64,000 nt of DNA from Antedon mediterranea (lineage: Eukaryota > Animalia > Echinodermata): the NCBI RefSeq assembly GCF_964355755.1, contig NC_092679.1, forward strand, positions 11,453,432 through 11,517,431, written 5' to 3'. The first letter of the stretch is position 1. Each line of letters opens with the position of its first letter. Both the position numbers and the translations under genes were made by a program. Below, piece after piece: positions 26,701 through 64,000 of this stretch. The notes beneath the pieces are model-generated. The model made no database searches, had not been told where the DNA came from, and was given only the letters and a program-made list of their open reading frames with translations.

Positions 26701-29700
26701 AGAATAAATATTTAGGCCTATTTGTCAATTTAAAAACCTATTTGAATATGATACATTCGTAGGCCTCATCAGATAGGAGCAGGGTGCGGGTCAAACAATT
26801 TGTTAAAGTTTTTGAATATTTTTTTACTCATCCAAATTCAATCCTCTTTAAAATTGTGTAACGGTTCCGAACTGTCGTTGTCCTGATCGGTTATGTATGT
26901 TAGATGTTGTTAAGCCATGTTTCAATCCAATATTTAACAAACGCTCGGAACTGCTTATTTCCTTCTGTTTCACCGCAAACCAACATATTTTACAGCTACT
27001 AATTATCAACAAACCGCTATCGTGTTTTTTAAAAATGGTTAACAGTTCTGGTTCGAATACTTGTAAAGTGTGGGCCCGTAACAAACCGATATAACACAAG
27101 TGTTATCATTATGTCTAGCGACAATAAACAGTAGTGCAGTATCGCATCTTCCGACAGCAACTCCCAGAAACCTTGTTACCATGTGCTATGGTATGGGCCT
27201 GTTGTATACCGCTCGTTTATGTATTCGCGGCTGAAATTTAACCTACAAGAAATGTGTCATGTTTCCAGAAATGTTCAAGCTCCGTTTGTTTATATACATT
27301 CTACTAAAGTACAATAAAGATGGCCTAAATATTGGGAGCACAACATTTTACGGCAATCAAGTGTATTAGAGTTAAGTTCATTATCTTATTTGATAAGTGG
27401 TTATCCACTTACAGTGCTGTCCAATTACCTGCTGATAGATTGAATTACGTAAAAAACGTCTTCATTTGTCATCTTGATAAACACTTTAAATTGATATTAA
27501 GTTGTACAGATGTCACAATGATTTGATTACATTGCACAATTGTATGTTAAAGGAATACCGGTATTTACTTTTAAATACATAACAATATAACTAAATCGTT
27601 ATATGGAGTCAAGATGAAAACTGGGCCCTATTATTTTCATACATAACATAAAAAGTACTCTGGCATATTTTACACTTTCAGTTAAACAAATGTGTCTTTA
27701 CTCGTGCACTTATACGTACTTGTCAAGCATGAAACTACAAGATGATATAGCTAATTATAACAATTAAGTTTCTCTAGTTTACGGTAACCCGACTTTCTTA
27801 TATTATTTTTATCACGTGGTGAAATCTCGACCACTTATTATAAAACGGTCAAGACAGAACAATTGTTACTTGTATTAAAAAAAAACTCTTAGGTCGCTCT
27901 CCAATGAGAGATTGTATTCAGTGTATAAGCCTACTGGACACTAGCCCCACCATACAAGTGTAATCAGATCTGTAATGAATATACAATTACACATTCATAT
28001 TTGATCATTATATAATGTAGCTGTAAATTGTGTGCATTAAGCACACGTTTACCTATAGTAAAAATGATTTCACTTACCTGTAGGGTGATCGGCTGTTGAT
28101 GTGCTATGTCGAAATGCTAGAATGTCATTAACTGTATGAGACGGAGGCCAGTGCCGGAGTGGTGTACAGGGACTTGATGTTGAAACATGCTTAGAATTAG
28201 AAGGTGCTGGACATGGGTATGGATACAGTGGGTTATAAATAGAGCGATGGTGTTCTTTACAGTCAAAACTACTCTGATAATGAGTACTATTCTGTCCAAT
28301 TTTGTTTCTTAATATTCGACTAATCGAACTGACTGATGGTACATTGTATTTATCACATACACCGTCTGCTAATAATTTGTCCCGAATCTCCCAAGCAAAT
28401 ATACCCGGGTCTTTGTGTTTATATTCTCGTATGTGTTTAACAACTTTCGGTGTTGTGACTCTTGGTTTACTGCCTCCGATTGCACCAGGAAGAATTGAAC
28501 CAGTTTCGTTGTATCGAGCCAATATCTTGCTAACACAACCATGAGATACCCTGAGTTGACGACTGATGTCACACGGTCGGATTCCAAGCTGGGCTAGCTC
28601 CACAATTCGAAGACGAATAGCATTTGGTAAAGGACGTCCGTTAACAAATACACCACCTAGCTGATTTACTTCACCAAATGTTTGTTCTGTGGAAAACACA
28701 CCATAAAATGCCATTTTAACTTAGTTGTAAATGTTATTTAAAAATTGAAATAAAACAAAAATTCGTCAGGCAGTGTATCATCACTCTTGTAAAAACCCCA
28801 CAGTCTATTTTGATTCCAACGATGTCTTTATTACTTCATTCTCACATGAATAACTAAGTGCAACAAGTCTTGGCCATAAGTTGGAATGTGAATTTATACT
28901 TGTCAATGGACAAGGGTTAATGCACGGCTGGTTGCTTGTTGTCAGTGTCCATAATTACGTTACAATAGCTTGCGGGAAAGCTCAATCTACAATCCATTTT
29001 TCTACCATTAAGGATCAAATTTGACACCAAAATGTGTTTGATTTTTGTTGGTAGCGTTTCCGATTGCAAGCATAATTTATTTGCGTCAGCCATCGATCGT
29101 CGGTTCGAAGCTGAGAAACTCTATCCAACAAATTGTCTGGACTATTGAATGTAGTTTTCAGTTTTAACTAAGCGAGAAAGTCTTTAATTGTCATGTATCA
29201 AAGTCAAATAAAAACGAGCTTACTTAAGTACTCTTAGACGGATACTTTTCTACCAATCTCAGTGTTGAAACCTACTGTAAACGGAGCGTAACAGCGTGCT
29301 CTTTAGCGTTCCATTTATAGCATTTGGAGTGAAATCTTCAGTCCATTACAACACTCAGTGATCATTTTCAAAAGCAATTAATATCGTTTAATCATGAAAG
29401 TGATACATTCTAAGCACTAGTACTATTTTTTATTAGGCCTACAATGTCTATTATTAGGCCTACTTGTGACGATTTAACAATTTATATGCATTTAAAAGGA
29501 ATGTATAACTACATTCATACTATAAGTTCAGATACTATTATCCCAGTAATTTATAATAGTTTTAATTTAGATATGACAAGACCTACAATTTGGGAAGAAA
29601 AAATTAATCTTCACTATTATAGATTTTTTTTCCATTACATTATATTATTTCATCCACTCCTAAATTATGATATTCTAAGCGAGTATGACCGGCTTAGTAG

Positions 29701-40800: not shown

Positions 40801-43800
40801 AGGCATAATTTTGACAAATTTTTGGACTTTTTCATCAAAATTGCGCGCAAATTGTTTAATTCTACGTGCTCGTATGACGAGATTTTAAGGCAAAATTGAT
40901 TGAAAATTGGTAAATATATTATAAAAGACAGAAAAAACAAAAATCAAGCAAAAAAAAGATGTTTTTGCGCTACGTGCGCACGCGCGCGTAAAAAAATTGC
41001 GCAAGCCTGGGAATTTTTGAAATGCTCAAAATGATATGAAACGCGTAGAAAATTGATTAGAAGTTGATTTTTTGCATTTTGAAATTTTAAACGCGCGTGC
41101 GCGCGTAACTTTCTGTGAAACATGCAATTTTTAATCCATAGAAAGTTTGCGCTTGATATGACTTAAATTTTCACAAAGTTTCAATACAAAATAACTTTCG
41201 GTTTTTAATCTATGATCAATCATTTAAATTCATAAAATCGCGCGTAACTTACGCTGCGCAACTCAAAATTCATAAAAAAAAGTTTCTTGCACATCTACAG
41301 CAACAGGGCAATCTTTTGACAAAGTTATACAATCATATGTTGGCCAGAGTTAGAGATACGCTGCGAACAAAATTCGTGGAAAGAAAGAAGAACATAGAAA
41401 AAAAAACTAGATTTGAACTCGTCACTACGGACGAGTTAGGTTATCCGCAGCCCAAAAGCCACGTGCACGTCATACGTTAGAATATTGCACACAGAAAAAC
41501 ATTATTATGACTACTATACTATACTATAGGTCCCTGGACCTATTTGTTTATCACAAATAGCCAATCAGTACTTAGTCTTATTTGGCCTGCTACATTATAG
41601 CAGTAGGTAGGAAACTAGATTTGAACTCGTCACTACGGACGAGTTAGGTTATCCGCAGCGCAAAAGCCACGTGCACGTCGTACGCTAGAATATTGCGCGC
41701 ATAAAAACGATTATGCCATTGAAAAAAAATGTTAGTGCGCTCTCTATTTTGTGTCACGTCTGAGTATATACGGTATACACTATAAACTAACTGTATACGT
41801 ACTACATACAGAGCAGAATAGGTGAAAATAAGGGATCCAAGTTATTGACTTTTTTGGACATGATGACGTCATCACAATATAAAAAATGGTAGATTATGCG
41901 AAAGATAATTGATTGGCCTAGATAATATAACAAAATGGGGAGAAATGGAATACGGATAAGTGGAGATGCGCTCTATTAAATGTGATGAGTTATGCGAAAG
42001 AGACAAAAATCCTATATTTTATATTCGAGTGGCCATACGATGACGTCACAATGTCCGGTTAGCCATATCGATACATGATTTGATATCTACAACTCATTTA
42101 CTTCCAGAATCTGAAATTTTAAAAATGTTCATTACGGAGTTTAGAATTTATGACTTTTTAAAAAAAGGCTCAATTTTCACTAATTTTTGAACTTTTTCAT
42201 CAAAAACGCGTACAAATTGTTCAATTCTACGTGCTCGTATGACGTGATTTTATGTCGAAATTGATTAAAAATTGGTAAAATTACTAGAAAAGGCTGGAAA
42301 AACCAAAATCAAGCAAAAAAAAGATGTTTTTGCGCTAAGTGCGCACGCGCGCGTAAAAAAATTGCGCACGCGTGGGAATTTTTGAAATGCTCAAAATGAC
42401 CTGAAACGCATAGAAAGTTGATCAGAAATTGATTTTACGCATTTTGAAATTTTAAACGCGCGTGCGCGCGTAACTTTCTGTCAAACATGCCATTTTTAAT
42501 CCATAGAAAGTTTGAGCATGTTATGACTTAAATTTTCTCTAAGTTTCAATACAAAATGACTTTTAGTTTTTATTCTATGATCAACCATTGAAATTCATAA
42601 AATTGCGCGTAACTTACGCTGCGCAACTCGGACGTGACCGAAAACCTTATTACGACATCTTCAAATAGAGGTTAATCTTCTGATAAAGTTATAAAATGTT
42701 ATGTTAAGAAGATTTAGAGATACACTAGCAACAAAATTTGTGGAAAGAAAGAAGAAAATAGAAAAAAAAGAAAAATAAAAAAAAAAAAAAAAAAGATCCT
42801 GACAATAACAAGGGGTTATCCGCCAAGTGCGGATAACCAAAAAGATCCTGACAATAACAAGAGGTTATCCGCCAAGTGCGGATAACCAACTAGATTTGAA
42901 CTCGTCACTACGGACGAGTTAGGTTATCCGCAGTCCTATAGCCACGTGCACGTCATACGTTGGAATATTGCGCGCAGAAAAACGATTATGCCATTGAAAA
43001 AATGTGAGTGCGCTCTCTATTTTGTGTCACGTCAAGTGTATACGGTATACACTATATACCGTATACGTACTACATACAGTTCAGAATAGGTGAAAATAAG
43101 TGACCAAAGTTATTGACGCTTTTGCACATGATGACGTCATAACAATTTTTAAAATGGTCAATCATGCGAAAGATAATTGATTGATATAGACAATATAAAG
43201 AAATTGAGGGCAATGGAATACGGATAAGTGGAGATGCGCTCTATTAAATGTGATGAGCTATACGAAAGAGAAAAAAATCCTATATTTTATATTCGAGTGG
43301 CCATACGATGACGTCACAATGTCCTGATAGCCATATTGATACATGATTCGATATCTACAACTCATCTACTACCAGAATATGTAATTATAAAAAAGTTTAC
43401 CACGTAGTTTAGAATCTATGACTGTTTAAAAAAAGGCATAATTTTGACAAATTTTTGGACTTTTTCATCAAAATTGCGCGCAAATTGTTTAATTCTACGT
43501 GCTCGTATGACGAGATTTTAAGGCAAAATTGATTGAAAATTGGTAAATATATTATAAAAGACAGAAAAAACAAAAATCAAGCAAAAAAAAGATGTTTTTG
43601 CGCTACGTGCGCACGCGCGCGTAAAAAAATTGCGCAAGCCTGGGAATTTTTGAAATGCTCAAAATGATATGAAACGCGTAGAAAATTGATTAGAAGTTGA
43701 TTTTTTGCATTTTGAAATTTTAAACGCGCGTGCGCGCGTAACTTTCTGTGAAACATGCAATTTTTAATCCATAGAAAGTTTGCGCTTGATATGACTTAAA

Positions 43801-46800: not shown

Positions 46801-47827
46801 CGAAAGAGACAAAAATCCTATATTTTATATTCAAGTGGCCATACGATGACGTCAGAATGTCCGGTTAGCCATATCGATGCATGACTTGATATCTACAACT
46901 CATCTACTTCCAGAATCTGAAATTTAAAAAAAGTTCACCACGGAGTTTAGAATCTATGACTGTTTTAAAAAAGGCATAATTTTGACGAATTTTTGAACTT
47001 TTTCATCAAAAACGCGCACAAATTGCTCAATTCTACGTGCTCGTATGACGTGATTTTAAATCGAAATTGATTGAAAATTGGTAAATTTACTAGAAAAGGC
47101 TGAAAAAACAAAAATCCATCAAAAAAAAGATGTTTTTGCGCTACCTGCGCACGCGCGCGTAAGAAAAGTGCGCATGCGTGGGAATTTTTGAAATGCTCAA
47201 AATGACATAAAACGCGTAGAAAGTTGATTAGAAATGAATTTTGCGCATTTTGAAATTTTGAACGCGCGTGCGCGCGTAACTTTATGTAGAACATGCCATT
47301 TTTAATCGATAGAAAGTTTGCGCATGATATGACTTAAATTTTCACCAAGTTTCAATACAAAATTACTTTTGGTTTTTAATCTATGATCAATCATTGAAAT
47401 TCATAAAATCGCGCGTAACTTACGCTGCGCAACTCTAAAGTTAAAAAACGAAACGTCCTGCACATCTACAGCTAGAGGTCAATTTTATGACAAAGTTACA
47501 CAATCTTATATTGGCCAGAATTAGAGATACGCTGCGAACAAAATTCCGGGAAAGAAAGAAGAATAAGATAGAAAAAAAAAAAAAAGAAAAAAAAAAAAGA
47601 TCCTGACAATAACAAGAGGTTATCCGCCAAGTGCGGATAACCAAAAAAGATCCTGACAATAACAAGGGGTTATCCGCCAAGTGCGGATAACCAAAAAAAG
47701 AAAAAAAAAAAGATCCTGACAATAACAAGAGGTTATCCGCCAAGTGCGGATAACCAAAAAAAAAAAAAAAAGAAAAAAAAAAAGATCCTGACAATAACAA
47801 GGGGTTATCCGCCAAGTGCGGATAACC
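37880..47827 (-). mobile_element. Nested cluster of eight ~1.2-kb HINE/DINE-1-like non-autonomous Helentrons
   Basis: Element on the minus strand: 5' palindromic subTIR GGTTATCCGCACTTGGCGGATAACC, poly(T) tract, ~1.15-kb body, 3' subTIR TGCGGATAACC, stem-loop AACTCGTC-CGTAGT-GACGAGTT, terminal CTAG, between T residues, no TSD. Plus-strand bodies start at 37880, 39033, 40257, 41615, 42890, 44052, 45206 and 46429, with a ~100-bp 3'-end fragment at 41407. The 44-bp heads start at 40207, 42795, 42844, 46363, 47599, 47649, 47712 and 47784. Confidence 0.88.
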
Positions 47828-50249
47828 AATTATCTGAAAACGTATTTGCAAAACTGAAGCAACACAGATATATCGGTCACTTCTCACTTGCAGCACTGAG
47901 ATAATGTGTCATAAGTAACTAGCAATATTAACAATGTCAATGTTATTGAATGTATATATTATTTAAGTTCAATTGTCCATCTCTCTGGGTTTTCCGCATC
48001 ATTTTGAGTGTATCGATGTGCACCCAATTGAACATTACCGGGTTCATAGAGACAATCAAACTTGACAAATAGAAATCAAAATGTCTAGAAAACTACTCCA
48101 CGGATTCACTGTCCAAGACGATAAAAAGAAGACAATTCAGAAAATCCAGAATTCTGAAATAATTTTAAAATAGACCAACATATACTATACACTACAGTAC
48201 GAGTATGCTAACCTAACCCATATTACAGGAACACATGAACATTAATGGAAATATGTTACTATATTTTCCAAATGTAACATGATAATAATTATATGTACAA
48301 TATAACTACCTCTAACATTTCATTATAATTCATTCCATTTCCGTAATATAAAAACTTATTTTTCATTATTCAGCATTTAATAACATCTCAATTATGTATT
48401 TTTTTTTATCCCTAGAAAAAATATTAGATCTAATAATTGATAATGGAATATTTAAAAGTATATGCCTAAATGAAATGTAACTTATAGATTAATTTTTTTG
48501 TTTAGCTCTGAAGAAGCTTCTTTCAAAATATCGAATATATAATAACAAATATATTGTTGAACCCTCTTTTGGAATACCCCCATTGTATTAAGGGACACAT
48601 TCGCGTGAAAGGAGGGACAAGATATATGTTTGTTTTTCGCCTATTAAGGAGAGTGGCACACTTTTGAATGTGTCAAATAATTGGTTTAATAAAAAAAAAA
48701 GACCAATAATATTCGTTTATATAGTTATTAATTCTAAAATATGGATATCATAAAAATGATGATGCTTTCTTTGGCTTGACAGTTTTCATTGGTGAATCGT
48801 TGGCTGCTAACGTTTCAATTCTTCTCAATTCCTTGTGTCCAGATCAATTAGTGTTCATTTTGGATTTTTTTTTTTTTTTTGCCCGTGAACTCCCTATTAA
48901 AAGGACATATTGAGTTTTTAGTTGTCCCTTGAATAGGAGGATCCGTAATCAGTAGACACCACTATACAAAAAGGGCTATTTTTCTTAAAAGTGTCCTACC
49001 GTATTTGTTTATTATTTGTATATGGAAATTTATTTTCTCTGATCATTTTTTAAATATTATTTTGAGTAGAAACTCTCTGTCTTACATGGTTCTAATTACA
49101 CAGATAGTATCATCGCTGTTGTTATTCTCTAATTTGATTGCTACATTTTCAGGTCAATGAATCGTTCAAAACAGGACGAACAAACTATGTTATTCAGGTA
49201 TCTTCGGATTTCCCTTCCCGGGTTAAAATCAGTCTCATTGCAACAAAACAATCTAACAAAGCTGTTCGATATTAACAAATAACAACCCGATTTAATTGGA
49301 TGCGAAGGAGAGGGGGTTTCTTCGTACCGATCTGAGTAATTGCACTATAAATCTTACGTCAATTCTGTCTATAACCGATGACGGGACCTCCTCTATAGAA
49401 AACATTACGCGCATGATTACTGTACAAAGAATTGGAGTATTTATGACCAATGTAGGGTGTATGTGACGGCTGTTTTATAGTACATGGTATCCTGTATCAT
49501 ATCGAGGGCTTTAATCGAATTTACAGTGGCTTTGGTAACATTTCAAATTCCGTAATCCTTTCGGTATAGCGCTTATGTTTTTGCTCAAGCGTAACACAGC
49601 GTATCGGTTATAAAACGAAACGAAGTTATTATAAAATTAACGAAGCACACAACAATCTAAGACAAAAAAGTAACCATTTTTATTTATTTAAGTTTCAAGA
49701 ATTGTTTTAAAGCATAATTTGATTAATAGATAGCCAGATAAAAATAAAAGTTAATTATAAAAGAATATTAAGATCATTCATTTTAATATTCATTTAATTT
49801 CAAGCAAACGTTTATTCTTCTATAATAAATACAGTAGAAACTACTGAAAGGCAAGCCCACACAGAAAAGACAAAACCACAGCAAAATAAGTTATAAACAG
49901 ATGCTGCAGTACAATAATTAAAAAAGAAGGCTGCTCACAAAAATCAGTACCATATTATAGATAAAATGTAAAAATATTGTTAATTTGAGATTAAAAGGTT
50001 TTTTTTTAGGATTTGACATAAAACTTCTGCTGTCAACGGATGTCAATGCAATTTATTATTGGAATTAAGGTACTTATGGGGTGTTCACACGTATGGCGTA
50101 AGGCTGGCTTACGCCTAACGTAGTTTATGCATTTGTGTGTGAACTAGGCAGTGGCAACTCAATACGCCACGTCCCTGGCGTCATTAACGACAGCTACAAA
50201 CCCCATCTCAATTAACGCAAACGACGCGTGGATAATGTTTATCTAATTT

Positions 50250-54074: not shown

Positions 54075-57000
54075 ATGTCTGCTGAAAAAGAAAAAACAGT
54101 TACTTTTAAAGAAAATAATAAAGCTGATAAACAAGAAGAGAGACAAGAAGAGGAACAAAAAAAAAATAAAGACAAGGTGAAAATGCATAATGAGTATACA
54201 TCTGAGAAATCATGAACATTTATTACATGTCATCATTAGCATTGATTAGCCAGTAAAAGACGAAAAAGAGATTCTTTATCTAGTTACCATAAATCCAATT
54301 ATCTAGCTATCTATCAAGGAGAGAACGTAGGAAATCATTCGCCTATGAATATTATTCTATATTATTAGTTACCATTCGGCGTAAAAATCAGCCTTTATCT
54401 AATTACTGAAAACACAAAAAAACCATCAACTTTTCAAATTATTAGTTCAGTAACTCTTCTTGATTATTAATATTTAAAAGCTATTATCCATCTATTATTT
54501 GCATATAATATTGAACATATGGGTTCATAGTTCAAAATGTATTTACATTGCAAACATAATTTATGATAATTATGACAATTTAGATATTTAATTATAAATT
54601 AACGAACTGTAATCAAGTACTGTACTAATGTAATTTACTACTACAGGAAGATGGACAGAACGTTGTCACCAGGTTCAAAGTATACATCAATGTAAGTATT
54701 AATAAAGTCATAGAATAATTTCCATCATTTGTCAACAAATAAAGTGAAATGTAGTCACCTAATTAATATTGCTCTTTATTTCAAGGCAAAGATTGAAAAC
54801 CAAGAGTTTTATGTCAATCCTGAAGGTGACGTCATCTTTTTGTGGATGGTAAGATTGATAACAATGTTAAACACACATGTAATTAGTTGACAACACTTAA
54901 TGTGTTGCAACTTAATTAATATCTTATCTTTACGATATTGCGATATTGCAAATTAACCATAGGGTGGCAGAATTTGCTGTCACTTCAAATCTAGTTTGAA
55001 TAATTTGTATTTTAATAACATAACATTGTTGTGGTCTTTCTCAAAGCGACTGGTAACCGTTGCAGTGGTATATAATTTTTGGATGATCATTTTACGAATC
55101 GCATTTAAAGAAATGCGTGAAGAGGTTTGTATATTAATTATACATTTCGTTAATATAATTATATTATTTAATTCCATTTGAGTTTATTCAAAAGAGTATA
55201 CTCTTAGTTTGCTTATATCAAAAAAGTTATTGATATTTGGAATGAGTTAATTATTGATATAATTTAGCCCTAATTAGTTAAAATGTTTAAATTTCATATG
55301 TATCTAACAGCAAAAATACTCGCCAATTACAGGATGAAAATGTAATTCCTGATTCATATTCCTTTCAGTATTAATATAAGATGTAATATTTCATAACATG
55401 ACCGAATATACTGTAAATCAAAGAATGGGTTGCAACAAATACGGTTTTTGTAACCTAATCTAAGAATCGATTTATGTTTAATAATCACGCACAATTTGTT
55501 ATTAAATGAGTTTGTCTATTATTACTATTTTTGTAATAAACTGAAATTATTGACTATAATATGTTGTAATTTACAATTTCAACAACACTACTTTCCTAAT
55601 AGGTTACACATCCATTTCAACAACACTACTTTCCTAATAGGTTACACGTCCATTTCAACAACACTACTTTCCTAATAGGTTACACATCCATTTCAACAAC
55701 ACTACTTTCCTAATAGGTTACACATCCATTTCAACAACACTACTTTCCTAATAGGTTACACATCCATTTCAACAACACTACTTTCCTAATAGGTTACACG
55801 TCCATTTCAACAACACTACTTTCCTAATAGGTTACACATCCATTTCAACAACACTACTTTCCTAATAGGTTACACATCCATTTCAACAACACTACTTTCC
55901 TAATAGGTTACACATCCATTTTAACAACACTACTTTCCTAATAGGTTACACATCCATTTCAACAACACTACTTTCCTAATAGGTTACACATCCATTTCAA
56001 CAACACTACTTTCCTATAGGTTACACATCCATTTCAACAACACTACTTTCCTAATAGGTTACACATCCATTTCAACAACACTACTTTCCTAATAGGTTAC
56101 ACATCCATTTCAACAACACTACTTTCCTAATAGGTTACACATCCATTTCAACAACACTACTTTCCTATAGGTTACACATTCATTTCAACAACACTACTTT
56201 CCTAATAGGTTACACATTCATTTCAACAACACTACTTTCCTAATAGGTTACACATCCATTTCAACAACACTACTTTCCTAATAGGTTACACATCCATTTC
56301 AACAACACTACTTTCCTAATAGGTTACACATCCATTTCAACAACACTACTTTCCTAATAGGTTACACATCAATTTCAACAACACTACTTTCCTAATAGGT
56401 TACACATCCATTTTAACAACACTACTTTCCTAATAGGTTACACATCCATTTCAACAACACTACTTTCCTAATAGGTTACACATCCATTTCAACAACACTA
56501 CTTTCCTAATAGGTTACACATCCATTTCAACAACACTACTTTCCTAATAGGTTACACATCCATTTCAACAACACTACTTTCCTAATAGGTTACACATCCA
56601 TTTCAACAACACTACTTTCCTAATAGGTTACACATCCATTTCAACAACACTACTTTCCTAATAGGTTACACATCCATTTCAACAACACTACTTTTCTAAT
56701 AGGTTACACATCCATTTCAACAACACTACTTTCCTAATAGGTTACACATCCATTTCAACAACACTACTTTCCTAATAGGTTACACATCCATTTCAACAAC
56801 ACTACTTTCCTAATAGGTTACACATCCATTTCAACAACACTACTTTCCTAATAGGTTACACATCCATTTCAACAACACTACTTTCCTAATAGGTTACACA
56901 TCCATTTCAACAACACTACTTTCCTAATAGGTTACACATCCATTTCAACAACACTACTTTCCTAATAGGTTACACATCCATTTCAACAACACTACTTTCC

Positions 57001-60000
57001 TAATAGGTTACACATCCATTTCAACAACACTACTTTCCTAATAGGTTACACATCCATTTCAACAACACTACTTTCCTAATAGGTTACACATCCATTTCAA
57101 CAACACTACTTTCCTAATAGGTTACACATCCATTTCAACAACACTACTTTTCTAATAGGTTACACATCCATTTCAACAACACTACTTTCCTAATAGGTTA
57201 CACATCCATTTCAACAACACTACTTTCCTAATAGGTTACACATCCATTTCAACAACACTACTTTCCTAATAGGTTACACATCCATTTCAACAACACTACT
57301 TTCCTAATAGGTTACACATCCATTTCAACAACACTACTTTCCTAATAGGTTACACATCCATTTCAACAACACTACTTTCCTAATAGGTTACACATCCATT
57401 TCAACAACACTACTTTCCTAATAGGTTACACATCCATTTCAACAACACTACTTTCCTAATAGGTTACACATCCATTTCAACAACACTACTTTCCTAATAG
57501 GTTACACATCCATTTTTAGAGTGCATTTACCACTGTTTATACATTCTATAGCCTAATCATAAACATTTGACGATTTTATTTTTGTGAATGAATTTGCGTA
57601 TATCATTGTATTGTACCATTGCCATTCACAGGAGCTTTTAAATTACACAATTCCGTAAAAATGGTCAAAGAAACATTATTAAAAAAAATATGTAAATTGT
57701 CCTTACTACATTATTATTTTAGTAATCATTTTGTATGTATTGTTGTATAAGTTATATGTTCTTTTTAAGGCTTTCTTTAGACGAATATTCGGAAGTGTAG
57801 ACATATTCTGTGATGCTGTCTGTATTTTTGATATTTTGTTTAGTAATCGAGTTGCCTACCTTGAAGAGGGATTAATTGTAAGTATTCTTTTTGAATGAAT
57901 TTATATTGTATTATCAAGAATAGGCTTTTGCCTTGAGATGAAAGCAAGATTAATTCATTTCTGACGTAAGTTTGAGAATTATGTAAATGATGCTGGAGCA
58001 ACAACAATGCTGATGTTAAGATTTGTCTGTAGGATCACATATTTGACGGAAATTTGTCTGAAACAAATTCGAGTGTTTTTGGTAAAATTTGAGTGTCGCT
58101 GCCATTACTAAAATATCCTAAACCTTTCTAAAATTGTCTAAATAAATATTTATTAATTAATATTTGTATGTTTTTTTTAAAGGAGAATCTTTACACGTTA
58201 TCTTCTCTTCTGGTATCTCCACTGATAACATATCGATACCCACTGAATTGTACTGTATGACTATGAAGTAAAATTTTTCTCAATACTTAATTTGTAGGTT
58301 AAGGATCCTAGAAAACTTTCTGCAAATTATCGTAAAAAGCTAAGCTTCAAATTGGATATTTTGGCAGTTATACCACTTGGAACTATAGCGTTATTCATTG
58401 GAGGTAATTCATAAATTATTTACTGCAGTGTTTTTACATAAAATATTGGTTTATCCTCGTTTTATCCCAAGTTTCAACACAATAATTAAGCACATCGGCT
58501 GATAAATGTTGTTCTACAATCTATAGGGCACTTTTTCACTAATGGCCTATTTATTTTTTTTTCTAATTTCAGATATCAAAATAACAGTATTCACATAGTG
58601 GGCCTATTTAAATTAGTTTCTTGCACCAGAATCAATTCATTAATATGCAGTGTTTATAGTAATTATTATTTGTACTGCTCCATATTTGATAGTCGAAAAT
58701 ATATTTTTCATAGCACACGAACTAATAAAAATCTCCATTTTGTGAGCATTTCAGTGGCTAATTAGTGTTTTAGATCCCATTAACGTTACCAAGACGATAT
58801 ATTATTTTTGTAAACATTCACGTTATTTGCATGGCTTTCAAGAATCGATATTGAAAGGTACGGCTTTACATAAAATGACAGTTATGACAAAGAAATGATG
58901 GTAACAAAAAAACCTGTGGTACTACAATTTGTATCTAAATGACTTCATTAGTTTGTAGTTTAGACAGCAACAATTATCTAGAATATTCAAAGAAATTTTA
59001 GTGAATAATTATTAAAAATAGTCTCTATGCAATACAATAATTCATTCCCGACGCGTTGCTTGACTTTATTAACTTTTGGCTTCTAGATTTTGATAAACTT
59101 TGTACTGAAATTTAGCAATATAGTCATACAAATGAATTAATATCATATAAAGAAAATATATATCTTAAATTATATAAGCATGATAAATATATTTGGATGA
59201 CTTATTAATAGTTATTGTGTCCTGTCATTAAAATGGCTGAATTAAAAAATATTTCTATAATAATGTAGGTATATATTTATTTCCATTTTAAAAAAATAAA
59301 TATATTTGTAATAATAAAGAAATAAATCATCGTGTTTCATTTTAGGAGCATCTGATATAGTACATATCCATTTTGACTTAGATAATGGTAAGTAAAAAAA
59401 CAATGTTGTGGGTTGGTAAAAATCGATCTTAAATGTGAATATGCATAAATTAATATGTAATTTTATTACAGATCACATAATAATTCCGTTGCTGCGTTTA
59501 CCTCGTTTACTCAAACTACATTCAATGATATACTTCTTTGACGTCTGTGACAGGTTAGTGTTAATATTATATATATATTATATAATATAATAATAATGAT
59601 GAAGGGCTAGTGTTTACTTTATCGTTTTGATTTAGCTTTTCGCTTTTTATTTTTGTATCTCCATTGAGATCCAGCCACTGATACCCACAGCATTGTCATT
59701 TTTTCAGTAATTTGCCTTTGGATTTATATAATATAAATATATATTATTCATTTTTTGCTACTGTTCTTTTAAAAATAACTAAGGTAATTCACCTTACCAA
59801 TTTAAACTTATAATAATTTGGGTAAATACAATTTAAAATAGTATATTATATAAATGGACAGCTGAAGAAAGTGATATTCCTCTTTAACTGCATTCGAATC
59901 AAATACATTTCGATTGCCACTTTTTTCATCCATCAAATTTAACTTCAATGTCTAAAATAAGCAAAACCTAGTAAAATTAATTCGTTTTTTGGTCTTTTAT

Positions 60001-63000
60001 ATGCAACAGATGTTGAAAATTCTCAATAACTTAACACTTTAAAGCTTTAAATAGCAAAGAAATTGCTCAAATATGTTATGTTTTTCTGTATAAATAAACA
60101 TTAATTTAAATTTTTTAACGAAATACGTTCTACTAAACTATGTTGATCAATCCAGACATGACCTAAGCCCATTAAGAATATTAACATGTCTTACCAGTGC
60201 TCATCTCTACAGCATGTCTTACCAGTGCTCATCTTTACAGCATGTCTTACCAGTGCTAATCTCTACAGTATTCGAACACCGTAAAAGAATAAACTGTACA
60301 CACATTCCTAGCAAATTATGATTACATAAAAACCCCCAAATGCATTTAGAAAAATAGTAGTGAAATAAATAAATGGTTAGAAATATAAACCAATATTTGT
60401 TTTAATTCATAGTCGAACCAGTAATCCAAATCGTCTACGAGCGTTCAAGCTAATTATGTACCTAGGAATTGTAATTCACTGGATTGGATGTGTATACTAC
60501 ATGATATCAGACGTAGGTGTAAATATTTATGCTATAGGATTAGATTTTTGTGATATATGATGTATAGACGGTATGTTCGAAACGTTCATTTGTGAATAAT
60601 CTCATCAATGGTATTAACAATTAAAAAAATGTGCTCTGTTCAAATAGGCATCAGAAAGTGAGAATATCACAGTAAACATCAACTGACTTCTGACAAAATT
60701 TCCCTCTGTAAATCACTAAATTCAACCATTTGATATACCTCAATATACAATTAAGCTTCTACAAATTAAAATTTATTTACCTTTTCTCGATACAAGCACA
60801 TATTGTATAGTGATCTCATATACTTCATGATAGTATAGGAGAAAATGTTAAAAAACATTTTATTAATTGCATCTTCATTCTGCAAATGAAAAAAAAACGA
60901 TATCAACTAAAGGAAATGACGCATTGTCTGATTTCATTTCAGTATGAAGGATTTGGTACGAATAGCTGGGTATATCCTTTGCACGAAGACTGGCAAAACA
61001 CTAACTTTTTAAGGTAGGAACAACTAAATGTATATTTTTTTGTAAAGTAAAATGTGTAACTATCTATACGTTATTTCTAAAGAGTGATTACTTTCAAAGA
61101 AATTTTACATTAAATTGCACACATTATTGACACTTACCATACTTTACTATAAATATATTTGTGATCTGTTATTAGTTTTGACTAAAAGAAATGGTTTATG
61201 TTTTTAATAAATTCATAAAATCAAGGCGGTTATGGTAAGGGTAAATATAAAGTTTCACTGTATTTCGAAATTTTGTTATGATTCTGAACAACAAATCATA
61301 TTTTTCTAGATACTTTGGGAGTACGGAACCTGAACTTTTGTTATAGTGATTAGGTTCACTTTTAGGTTCCTGCCTATTCCCTTAGTTTCTGTGTTTTGTT
61401 TGTTTGTAACTGGTTTTTGGCAATAAATAATAATAATAATAATACCGTAACCATAACTCAAACAATACGATTCAAATAATTAACACTGTTAAAAGGCCTA
61501 GGTAATTTTCGGTTTATCATTATGAGGCTATTGTCTGGGTGTATCTGCGCATGTTTCTACTACATCCCCATTACCATGTCCCGTAGCATCTAGTTAATTA
61601 TTAATATTAATTTTAACTATTACTATGATTTCTTTGTGGTCTTATTCTCTTCTCTTCTTATTGTAATGACAACCTTAAATACAAACTACTTCGTGTATCA
61701 ACACAATGGCAAAAATTAATTATGATATAATATCAGTACAAAAATTACATAGACATTATGAAAATCTTAAACACCACAATTCTATTTTTCAGAAAGTATA
61801 TCACCTGTGTATACTGGTCAATAATGACCGTCACAACAATAGGAGAAACAGAGTGTCCAGATACTGACATTGTAAGTTGATAAACTACCAACAACTTGGT
61901 ACCTTTTCATTTTATTATTTTTGTATCTCTACAGCAAGTATATTCGATCGATGTTTTGGTCAATTGTTACTCTGACTACTATTGGTGGCACAAATTCTCC
62001 GATAACAAAACTTGTGAGTAATAGTATGGTATATCGCGGGACGCATACTTTATATTTTGGAGAACAAAACATATTACTGTATCGGATTGAGTTTGTAACC
62101 AAGGGATAACGTAACCTTAAACACAAGCTCCCATCAAATTATATTCTTTTTAAATTTTTTTTTTGAAATTTCATTTGAATTTTTATTTTCATTGATTAGG
62201 CGCGCCTACATTAATAAAATATTAATAGGAACAATTATTCATCATTATGGATTAATATAGTAATCAAATAAACGATATACTATATGAATAAAATAAGTTA
62301 ATAATACAGTTGTATACATTAATAGCGAATTTTGGTAGTTTATCTTTTTGAATTTTGAATAATATATTATAATATTATGATCACTAATGATCATTATTTA
62401 TTATTAGGTCTTTGTATGAATCATCCGCGACAATGCAATTTAATTCTGATGTTTAAAATCATGTGTAATTTTACAGGAATATGTGTTTACTGGTGGAACT
62501 TACTTGATTGGTGTGTTCCTCTTTGCTGCTGTTGTTGGAAACGTTGGAGATGTAATCAGCAACATGAATGCCGCCAGACAAGAATTTGTAACCAAGTTAG
62601 TATTTAATTAAATGGTAGACCCATTTTCATATTGGTGTCGATTCCATACCACCATCCCATATCATGATGTCATATACATTTTGGTACTGTCTACGAACGT
62701 TTGTTGTCAAGCTTCTTTCAACTACTGTATTAAGGGTAAATCCCCGATCAATTAAATTTATATCGAAAAAGGAGTTTCGTAAACTCACTAATTGTGTGTT
62801 CTGTTTATAATTAAAAAAAAAGAGATGTCTGACAATGTTGTGATGGCAAACCACACCTACACAGCCTATCGACATTTAAGTTAAGAACGGCGGTGTTTTG
62901 TTTTGCCGACAGATATATCATCAATTACTTTAGTTAGATTTGTTTGTCATTGTCTAATTATTCTGATGAATAACCATCGGGTGTGAATAAATAGAACATT

Positions 63001-63857
63001 GTTTTCAGGATGGATTCGCTAAAATTTTACATGAATCATCGAAAGGTTCCCGAGGATCTACAAAGCCGAGTAAAGAAATGGTCTGAATACGCCTGGACAA
63101 GGTAGGCATAGAATGAGTTCTCATGTTCCCTAGTTTGCTTATTGCCTTTACCAAGAAGGTTCTAAAATCACATCGGCTTATGTGTGCACGGAACGTTAGT
63201 ACACAGTGCAGTGAGTTTAATCTGCAATATGTTTTCTTATTTAGAACTCAGGCCCTGGACGACCAATGCTTCTTAGATATTCTGCCTCCTAGGCTGCGCT
63301 CCGAAATAGCTAAACATGTTCATCTTGAAACATTGAAGAAGGTAATTTTTTCCCCACATAATTTCCAAAAAATAAAAGAAACGAGTGTGTCCACATTTAG
63401 TATAAAAGGTAGAACAAGACTATTTCAGCCCACTAAGACGCAACACAAGCACAACGCAAACGAGTTGATTATTGGCAAGCAAACGATTCCAATAATGTAT
63501 CGATTGTGATTAGAAAAATGGCTTGTGTTCCCATGCATCGTTGCGTTGATTTCTAAGCCTAGTGGGAACCAAAAATTACTGATTGCAAAAAGCATGTTTG
63601 TCTAATATTTGGGAGACACGCCCTTTGATGATTCTTTTTTTATGTTTCATTGAAAAGGAAAATAGTTAATGCAGTACCTGTGATTTACTTTATCCTTAAT
63701 GTTATTAAAGGTAAAAATATTTGAAGATTGTGAGCAGGGTCTACTCTGTGAGCTCGTACTCAAGCTACGCTCTCAAATATACCCACCTAGCGACTACATC
63801 TGTAGGAAGGGAGAAATTGGCCGTGAAATGTATATTATTAATCATGGGCGTGTTTCA
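54075..63857 (+). CDS. CNGA: Cyclic-nucleotide-gated cation channel, CNGA-type (3' end outside the window)
   Basis: Exons 54075-54176, 54647-54691, 54786-54848, 55047-55124, 57770-57877, 58298-58403, (58774-58857), 59346-59387, 59472-59553, 60413-60512, 60943-61013, [61793-61871 or 61935-62013], 62477-62595, 63009-63101, 63245-63341, 63711-63857; phases join. Motifs: [20 protein letters not shown] (S3), LLRLPRLLK (S4), [11 protein letters not shown] (S5), [34 protein letters not shown] (S6), C-linker [28 protein letters not shown], and CNBD start [16 protein letters not shown]. The first two exons are less certain. Confidence 0.92.
55576..57515. repeat. 38-bp minisatellite, ~51 near-identical copies, in a CNG channel intron
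   Basis: Unit CATTTCAACAACACTACTTTCCTAATAGGTTACACATC; period 38 (AGGTT at 55601, 55639, 55677...). Confidence 0.97.
58774..58857 (+). CDS. Candidate 84-nt phase 1-1 exon in the CNG S3-S4 linker
   Basis: CTAATTAGTGTTTTAG acceptor and AAG|GTACGG donor. Open in the required frame: [28 protein letters not shown]. No homology support available by eye. Confidence 0.5.
60185..60269. repeat. 28-bp tandem repeat x3
   Basis: CATGTCTTACCAGTGCT(C/A)ATCT(C/T)TACAG occurs three times. Confidence 0.9.
61793..61871 (+). CDS. CNGA: CNG pore exon A (79 nt; pore helix plus TTIGE filter)
   Basis: TTTTTCAG acceptor, GTAAGT donor; encodes (R)[26 protein letters not shown]. Confidence 0.9.
61935..62013 (+). CDS. 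CNGA: CNG pore exon B (79 nt; pore helix plus TTIGG filter)
   Basis: CTCTACAG acceptor after a long pyrimidine tract, GTGAGT donor; encodes (S)[26 protein letters not shown]. Confidence 0.88.
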
Positions 63858-64000
63858 GTAAGTTTTCTTTAGAGCAGCCTACATTATTAATTAAAAATTA
63901 TTTCAGATGAAAACAAAATGGTACGGTAAGTCACATACATTTACAGATGTATGGTACAATTTTGATAAATTAGTTGCCTAAACATTAAGTTATAATTACC

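Follow-up and report, generated by a model that had tools for sequence, protein, structure and literature searches.

We consider it likely that a CNG channel gene of the crinoid Antedon mediterranea uses splicing to choose one of two 79-nt pore exons, which place either a glutamate (exon A) or a glycine (exon B) in the selectivity filter; the B form is predicted to be lower in Ca2+ flux and divalent block. In the mechanism that we propose, A and B would both be spliced in Antedon, exactly one of them in each productive transcript.

Two pore exons in one channel gene

The gene has 16 coding exons within the window (the whole stretch of DNA that was analysed, 64,000 nt) and runs past the window's end at 64000. 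With exon A, the gene model agrees at every residue (444 of 444) with the Antedon protein XP_071962608.1 of RefSeq (P0066). This protein is the sole Antedon entry in its protein cluster and carries exon A without exon B; exon B appears to be unannotated in the Antedon RefSeq. The features used below are these:

54075..63857, + strand: CNG channel gene, CLZ-less and CNGA-like, likely CNGC (from protein identity, Pfam and trees)
60943..61013, + strand: constitutive exon that precedes the cassette (S5-pore turret), ending in phase 2 (from the gene model and the match to P0066)
61793..61871, + strand: exon A, with the pore helix, the filter TIGE and the outer loop (AG/GT-flanked; the form annotated in the Antedon RefSeq)
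61872..61934, + strand: A-B intron, 63 nt, with a local hairpin that covers the A donor (from folding; putative role in exclusion)
61879..61891, + strand: 13-nt element, perfect complement of 62332-62344, the two bracketing exon B (from a complement search)
61935..62013, + strand: exon B, the homologous pore exon, with the filter TIGG and with Phe where CNGA1 has Y352 (20 of 21 residues shared with Anneissia isoform X1, P0001)
62332..62344, + strand: second arm of the 13-bp complement, within the intron that follows exon B (from a complement search)
62477..62595, + strand: constitutive exon that follows the cassette (S6 and the start of the C-linker; from the gene model, and a contig match of run X1 ends at 62477)

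Both pore exons are flanked by AG and GT(A/G)AGT, run from phase 2 to phase 0 and are free of stops, so that the first-pass annotation was right in describing two homologous tandem 79-nt exons with strong splice sites. It had also held that only transcripts with one of the two are in frame, and this is what we find: the 16-exon model stays open with A alone or with B alone. When both are included, the first bases of exon 62477..62595 complete a TGA, placing a stop at the B/62477 junction (codon 319), and when both are skipped a stop follows 10 codons past the start of the cassette. The pair therefore has the features of mutually exclusive homologous exons: tandem arrangement, equal length, homology and the same phases, with double inclusion and double skipping both unproductive. 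Between A and B, 45 of 79 nucleotides and 14 of 26 residues are the same, and 9 of the 13 degenerate codons common to them differ in nucleotides. As a check on chance, we took all 328 AG..GT windows of 79 nt on both strands of the whole window; 45 of these are open in this frame, and against the 14 of 26 residues that B has in common with A, the next best of the 45 reaches 4 of 26. The exon pair is thus confirmed, and chance is ruled out as its explanation.

Some further features of the window were noted. The longest intron of the channel gene contains a 38-nt unit in tandem at 55576-57515 (51 copies, 98% matches), and a very high-copy interspersed repeat lies in an intron of the gene at 59625-59735, with a contig depth above 100,000 in 4 of 4 runs. 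On the opposite strand, about 25 kb upstream of the gene, an open frame at 28070-28720 (-) encodes a complete paired box (Pfam PAX, E 1.7e-67), presumably of the Pax1/9 type. Related short repeat arrays stand about 2 kb apart in opposite orientation (560-781 and 2523-2744), and another related pair stands about 5 kb apart in the same orientation (42790-42889 and 47593-47829); both pairs are possibly the ends of mobile elements.

Isoform pairs in related species

Isoform pairs that differ solely in the pore exon are found in 5 of the 15 ambulacrarian species with a pore-bearing RefSeq entry: Anneissia japonica, Acanthaster planci, Asterias rubens, A. amurensis and Ptychodera flava. Alternative isoforms in RefSeq generally rest on RNA reads, and the crinoid, sea-star and Ptychodera pairs stand there under automatic names. 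In Anneissia japonica, X1 is the G form and X2 the E form, and the two are identical downstream of the pore exon. The Acanthaster planci pair (X1, E; X2, G), the Asterias rubens pair (X1/X2) and the A. amurensis pair each differ at 12 positions, and the two Ptychodera flava pairs (X1/X2 and X3/X4) at 11 each; all of these differences fall within the exon span. In the full-length pairs, they begin at the Arg/Ser codon that is split by the upstream intron in Antedon, which points to the same exon boundary. From these relatives, known through their proteins alone, we infer the same tandem exon layout.

The remaining 10 of the 15 species have one filter type alone: the E type in Antedon, Patiria, Saccoglossus and Glandiceps, and the G type in Amphiura and five sea urchins. 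Exons of the same type agree across species at 19-24 of 27 residues for A and 17-23 of 27 for B, compared with 14-16 of 27 between A and B within one gene. Since echinoderms and Ptychodera share the pairs, the exon pair is older than the split between echinoderms and hemichordates, which took place more than 500 million years ago. The annotated pairs in five other species thus support two earlier proposals, namely that the exons are used in a mutually exclusive manner and that the duplication is old, with selection on both copies.

RNA from Antedon

RNA from this species was sought in run X1, which consists of contigs only, is taken to be RNA by guess and also contains intron-bearing contigs. 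It includes a spliced joint of the channel gene at 57877>58298. A 195-nt contig matches 62477-62596 and continues for 75 letters beyond the acceptor, the match ending exactly at 62477. The depth of X1 in the bin of exon B equals 75 letters at the depth of this contig, and a similar remainder is left in the bin of exon A once a known contig is subtracted; each bin would fit about 75-79 covered letters, which other contigs could also supply. Some constitutive exons are without cover. As indirect support, the data of this run fit the transcription of both A and B into spliced RNA.

The alternative that exon B is a little-used relic in Antedon, or that it chiefly triggers the decay of A+B transcripts, would agree with the single RefSeq entry, which carries A only, and with the 15 of 36 X1 joints that are listed (all at a repeat), none of which leads into or out of A or B. 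Against this, exon B agrees with Anneissia at 20 of 21 residues and has been kept as well as exon A (14 of 16); it has a consensus donor and acceptor, its bin has cover in run X1, and B isoforms are annotated in five species. We therefore regard a relic or decay-triggering exon as very unlikely and retain the reading of two exons in use.

How one exon might be chosen

We suggest that the 63-nt intron between the exons enforces their exclusion and that nonsense-mediated decay acts as a backstop. Among the 15 introns of the gene that lie in the window, none is shorter than this one (the next are 84 and 94 nt), and its branch-point-like sites lie at +9, +38 and +43 from the A donor. In mammalian systems, as in the case of alpha-tropomyosin, the steric minimum is about 50 nt, a figure that may not be the limit in echinoderms. 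By analogy, it is plausible that splicing from A to B is sterically blocked by the short intron. The intron had been described as 63 nt long and largely pyrimidine tract; the length is correct, and only its 3' half is rich in pyrimidines. As for the backstop, each wrong combination, A with B or neither, gives an early stop with several junctions downstream of it, which is what usually triggers decay.

A second candidate for a role in the choice is the 13-bp complement that brackets exon B, which resembles the downstream docking sites described in insect genes in the part of the literature available to us (PMC6071210). A match of this length arose in 14 of 5000 shuffles, in 21 of 3000 when either flank was allowed and in 1 of 136 real windows, frequencies to be read with the fact that it was chosen post hoc among 54 inverted pairs. 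In the folded 741-nt region the pairing probability of the helix is about zero; forcing it costs 6.3 kcal/mol, and it competes with the local hairpin over the A donor. A search for a counterpart around exon A found none. A helix that loops out exon B is thus a weak lead.

Subfamily of the channel

The protein P0066 has the Pfam domains Ion_trans (68-326) and cNMP_binding (419-505). A six-helix channel domain is followed by a C-linker and a cyclic-nucleotide-binding domain, and the filter has the form TIGx, which by sequence marks the protein as a CNG channel. Its best PDB matches are CNGA1, CNGA3 and CNGA2 (E 1e-128 or lower), with 456 bits to CNGA1 against 280 bits to CNGB1. A CLZ domain (PF16526) was found neither in P0066 nor in five relatives, while the vertebrate control P0172 has one. 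On a tree of 52 hand-picked rows with the exon columns removed, the gene falls outside the vertebrate CNGA1-4 clade (separation supported by an SH-aLRT of 97) and outside the CNGB clade. On a wider FastTree of 114 rows, it belongs to a separate clade of 21 rows (support 100), one of five CNGA-like clades, which contains ctenophores, cnidarians, a sponge, chelicerates, spiralians, a priapulid, amphioxus and ambulacrarians.

From these sequences, the gene encodes a CLZ-less CNGA-like subunit that is neither CNGA nor CNGB and most likely belongs to the CNGC subfamily. CNGC has been described as a CLZ-less CNGA-like clade of ctenophores, cnidarians and some bilaterians that is absent from tunicates and vertebrates (PMC9803222). 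The membership of our clade fits the CNGC of Lagman et al. 2022, as compared by the range they describe; the range is shared, and our clade additionally includes a sponge protein (Corticium). In the main text of that paper (PMC9803222), which contains neither "exon" nor "pore", neither filter variation nor splicing is reported.

With this placement, the framing of the two exons as alpha-type and beta-type needs correction. The filters do read TIGE and TIGG; the gene itself is CLZ-less and likely CNGC, and exon B is not CNGB-like. A filter without glutamate, a mark of CNGB, is found in isoform B only. In vertebrate CNGB, the pore helix carries a basic amino acid (K841 in CNGB1, R403 in CNGB3; PMC10761061, as far as its text was available), and the position four before the filter Thr is Val in B and Met in A. 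The S6 common to both isoforms reads N-V-G-D; the corresponding residues are Q-x-R-D in 7 of 8 CNGB rows and E-I-R-N in the sponge row.

Separate CNGB proteins are present in Ptychodera, Apostichopus and Branchiostoma among the 120 of 683 matches that are listed. The first-pass annotation had stated that CNGB subunits are encoded by separate genes, and in Ptychodera and the sea cucumber this is so; its further statement that CNGB has a glycine filter does not extend to these two, whose filters read TIGN. Judged by sequence, TIGG is not the general CNGB motif. Among invertebrate CNGB proteins we noted filters of TIGN, SIGK or SIGN (P0243, P0247, P0241, P0324, P0250 and P0266).

That exon B replaces a lost CNGB gene or derives from CNGB would account for the filter glycine shared with vertebrate CNGB (PMC10761061, in the part available), and no crinoid or sea-star CNGB is among the 120 of 683 matches listed. 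Ptychodera, however, has the exon pair and a separate CNGB as well, Apostichopus and Branchiostoma also have a CNGB, and exon B lacks the basic pore-helix residue of CNGB and retains an A-like helix. With an S6 that is not CNGB-like in addition, descent of exon B from CNGB was rejected, and we give the whole proposal, replacement included, a very low probability. Since B shares with vertebrate CNGB only the change from Glu to Gly, and separate CNGB genes exist, the "beta-type" character is a case of convergence: the glycine of B resembles that of vertebrate CNGB without common descent.

Age of the duplication

On a tree of the remaining protein (32 rows), the G-bearing genes are scattered and require 4 changes, and forcing them together is rejected (p-AU 2.7e-10). 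The tree of the exon alone separates 13 of 13 G exons from 17 of 17 bilaterian E/D exons (88/86, not starred), and under it a clade of the ambulacrarian gene (p 0.0005) and one of the protostomes (p 0.016) are both rejected; this tree has 26 columns, the E/G column having been dropped, and convergence can mislead at such a length. When scored against the ambulacrarian A and B sets, again without the E/G column, the other bilaterian G exons are B-like in 6 of 6 cases and the E/D/N exons A-like in 11 of 11, the exons being hand-picked from the matches and representing about four lineages each. Non-bilaterians deviate: the G exons of ctenophores are A-like, and the E exons of cnidarians and the sponge are neutral to B-like. 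Overall, this speaks against the other residues being simply coupled to the filter and in favour of a single duplication in the stem of the bilaterians.

A third line concerns genes in which the two types stand apart. Amphioxus has neighbouring genes of each type, Bbelb_396060 (G) and Bbelb_396070 (E); Saccoglossus has one E gene and one G gene, both on a contig of the same length; and Ptychodera has a second, G-only gene with adjacent accessions. The neighbouring pairs of amphioxus and hemichordates are listed as P0013/P0362, P0020/P0363, P0006/P0026 and P0072/P0047. Chelicerate members of the clade were seen to have Asp, Asn or Glu as the filter residue in an A-like exon (P0030, P0031, P0117, P0118, P0120 and P0125), and both ctenophore paralogues that were found combine a glycine filter with a pore that is A-like in other respects (P0052, P0053, P0126 and P0128). 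By its sequence context, the ctenophore glycine filter probably arose separately.

Counting against an older origin, both filter types occur together in 0 of the 20 non-ambulacrarian clusters of this clade among those with members listed (amphioxus, a nemertean, molluscs, chelicerates, cnidarians, ctenophores and the sponge). A motif scan of 130 further representatives likewise found none in this clade with two tandem filters and none with a glycine filter. Weighing these trees and counts, we lean slightly towards a pore-exon duplication that is older than Ambulacraria and goes back to one event in the bilaterian stem. More tentatively, a wider scheme is possible, in which a single duplication preceding the divergence of protostomes and deuterostomes would have given CNGC a built-in alpha/beta system, with the splicing ratio grading Ca2+ entry and block through zero to four glutamates; the ambulacrarians would have kept both exons, amphioxus and hemichordates would have neighbouring E and G genes, and protostome lineages would have kept one type.

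Predicted function

The exon spans the pore helix, the filter and the outer loop, and without gaps Glu284 aligns to E363 of bovine CNGA1 and Tyr273 to Y352; the crinoid B exons have Phe at the Y352 site, and the other B exons Tyr. In the available text of PMC10761061, Ca2+ current and Ca2+ block are both all but lost once the filter glutamate is neutralised, and a change from Gly to Glu in CNGB1 strengthens block. By analogy, the A pore is predicted to be permeable to Ca2+ and blocked by divalents, and the B pore to have little external divalent block and Ca2+ flux. A and B are unlike at 13 of 27 residues, so that the effect of the filter residue may be cancelled or outweighed by that of other changes.

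Gating of the B form may also be altered, as the data on CNGA1 suggest. Homomers of CNGA1 E363G conduct with a lower open probability (PMC2229390, part of the text), and in the portion available of PMC2717697 the same mutation shows outward rectification. We therefore weighed the possibility that the exon pair is in use and has its main effect on gating or assembly, with B providing low-open-probability, outwardly rectifying or dampening subunits and block being secondary. In its favour, E363G cuts the open-state constant K1 of CNGA1 from 0.62 to 0.0063, most E363 mutants are voltage-gated, and E363 interacts with Y352 (all PMC2717697, in the same portion), the site at which crinoid exon B has Phe. 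These gating data come from another subfamily, however, and the G form stands alone in sea urchins, nemerteans and Priapulus and in both ctenophore paralogues, which suggests that a glycine filter can work by itself. A main effect on gating or assembly seems unlikely to us; it is compatible with a filter switch, and both can hold.

Returning to the filter switch, since A and B subunits are identical outside the exon, mixed tetramers are expected on co-expression: where A and B co-occur, they would co-assemble into tetramers with zero to four filter glutamates. According to a postulate of Lagman et al., subunits that lack the CLZ are ill-suited to pairing with CNGB (PMC9803222, in the text available). 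By analogy with CNGB, exon B could serve as a glutamate-free partner that is supplied within the same gene.

Meaning and comparison with known systems

Among the papers listed by our literature searches, which missed most subscription journals, none described a spliced CNG filter, and none was an electrophysiological or functional study on the CNGC subfamily. No CNG case appears in the available parts of PMC7576140, PMC6259924, PMC10120453 or a crab genome preprint. Few residues of CNG channels have been studied as well as the filter glutamate, which vertebrates vary solely by combining subunits that different genes encode. A splice switch that occurs in nature and has long been conserved would offer matched subunits that differ in one 27-residue segment, allowing tests of the number of filter charges against Ca2+ flux and block. 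The same pair would also probe how a glycine filter stays open while CNGA1 is crippled by the same mutation. It would provide a first handle on the CNGC subfamily, and CNG would be a second channel family, after NALCN, with a duplicated pore exon kept in ambulacrarians.

NALCN is the closest precedent. It has alternative pore exons 15a/15b and 31a/31b (Senatore et al. 2013, PMC3557258; here and below, as given in the available part of that paper); in the first of these pairs, a filter Glu is exchanged for Lys. Like the pair in Antedon, 15a/15b are tandem copies of a duplicated pore exon, with the glutamate in the upstream copy; they are mutually exclusive, as the Antedon exons would be, and they too are kept in echinoderms and hemichordates, with one copy lost in many lineages, and a single early origin has been proposed, as here (PMC3557258). 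The difference lies in the architecture: NALCN has four domains, and of its four filter sites a single one changes, from Glu to Lys (PMC3557258), whereas the Antedon channel would be a tetramer of subunits with a change from Glu to Gly, and mixing could give zero to four glutamates. In invertebrate Cav3 channels, splicing near the pore (exons 12a/12b) likewise shifts the preference between Ca2+ and Na+, but there it is the extracellular turret that is swapped and not the filter residue (PMC9694082, in the part available). The vertebrate CNGA and CNGB subunits likewise have either Glu or Gly as the fourth filter residue (TIGE/TIGG), and this position sets Ca2+ block and permeation; they are, however, products of separate genes, their 3:1 ratio is fixed via CLZ, and CNGB differs further in its S6 and in a basic residue of the pore helix (PMC10761061, text available in part). 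The Antedon pair, in contrast, is encoded by one gene, without CLZ, without the other features of CNGB and with no known control of stoichiometry.
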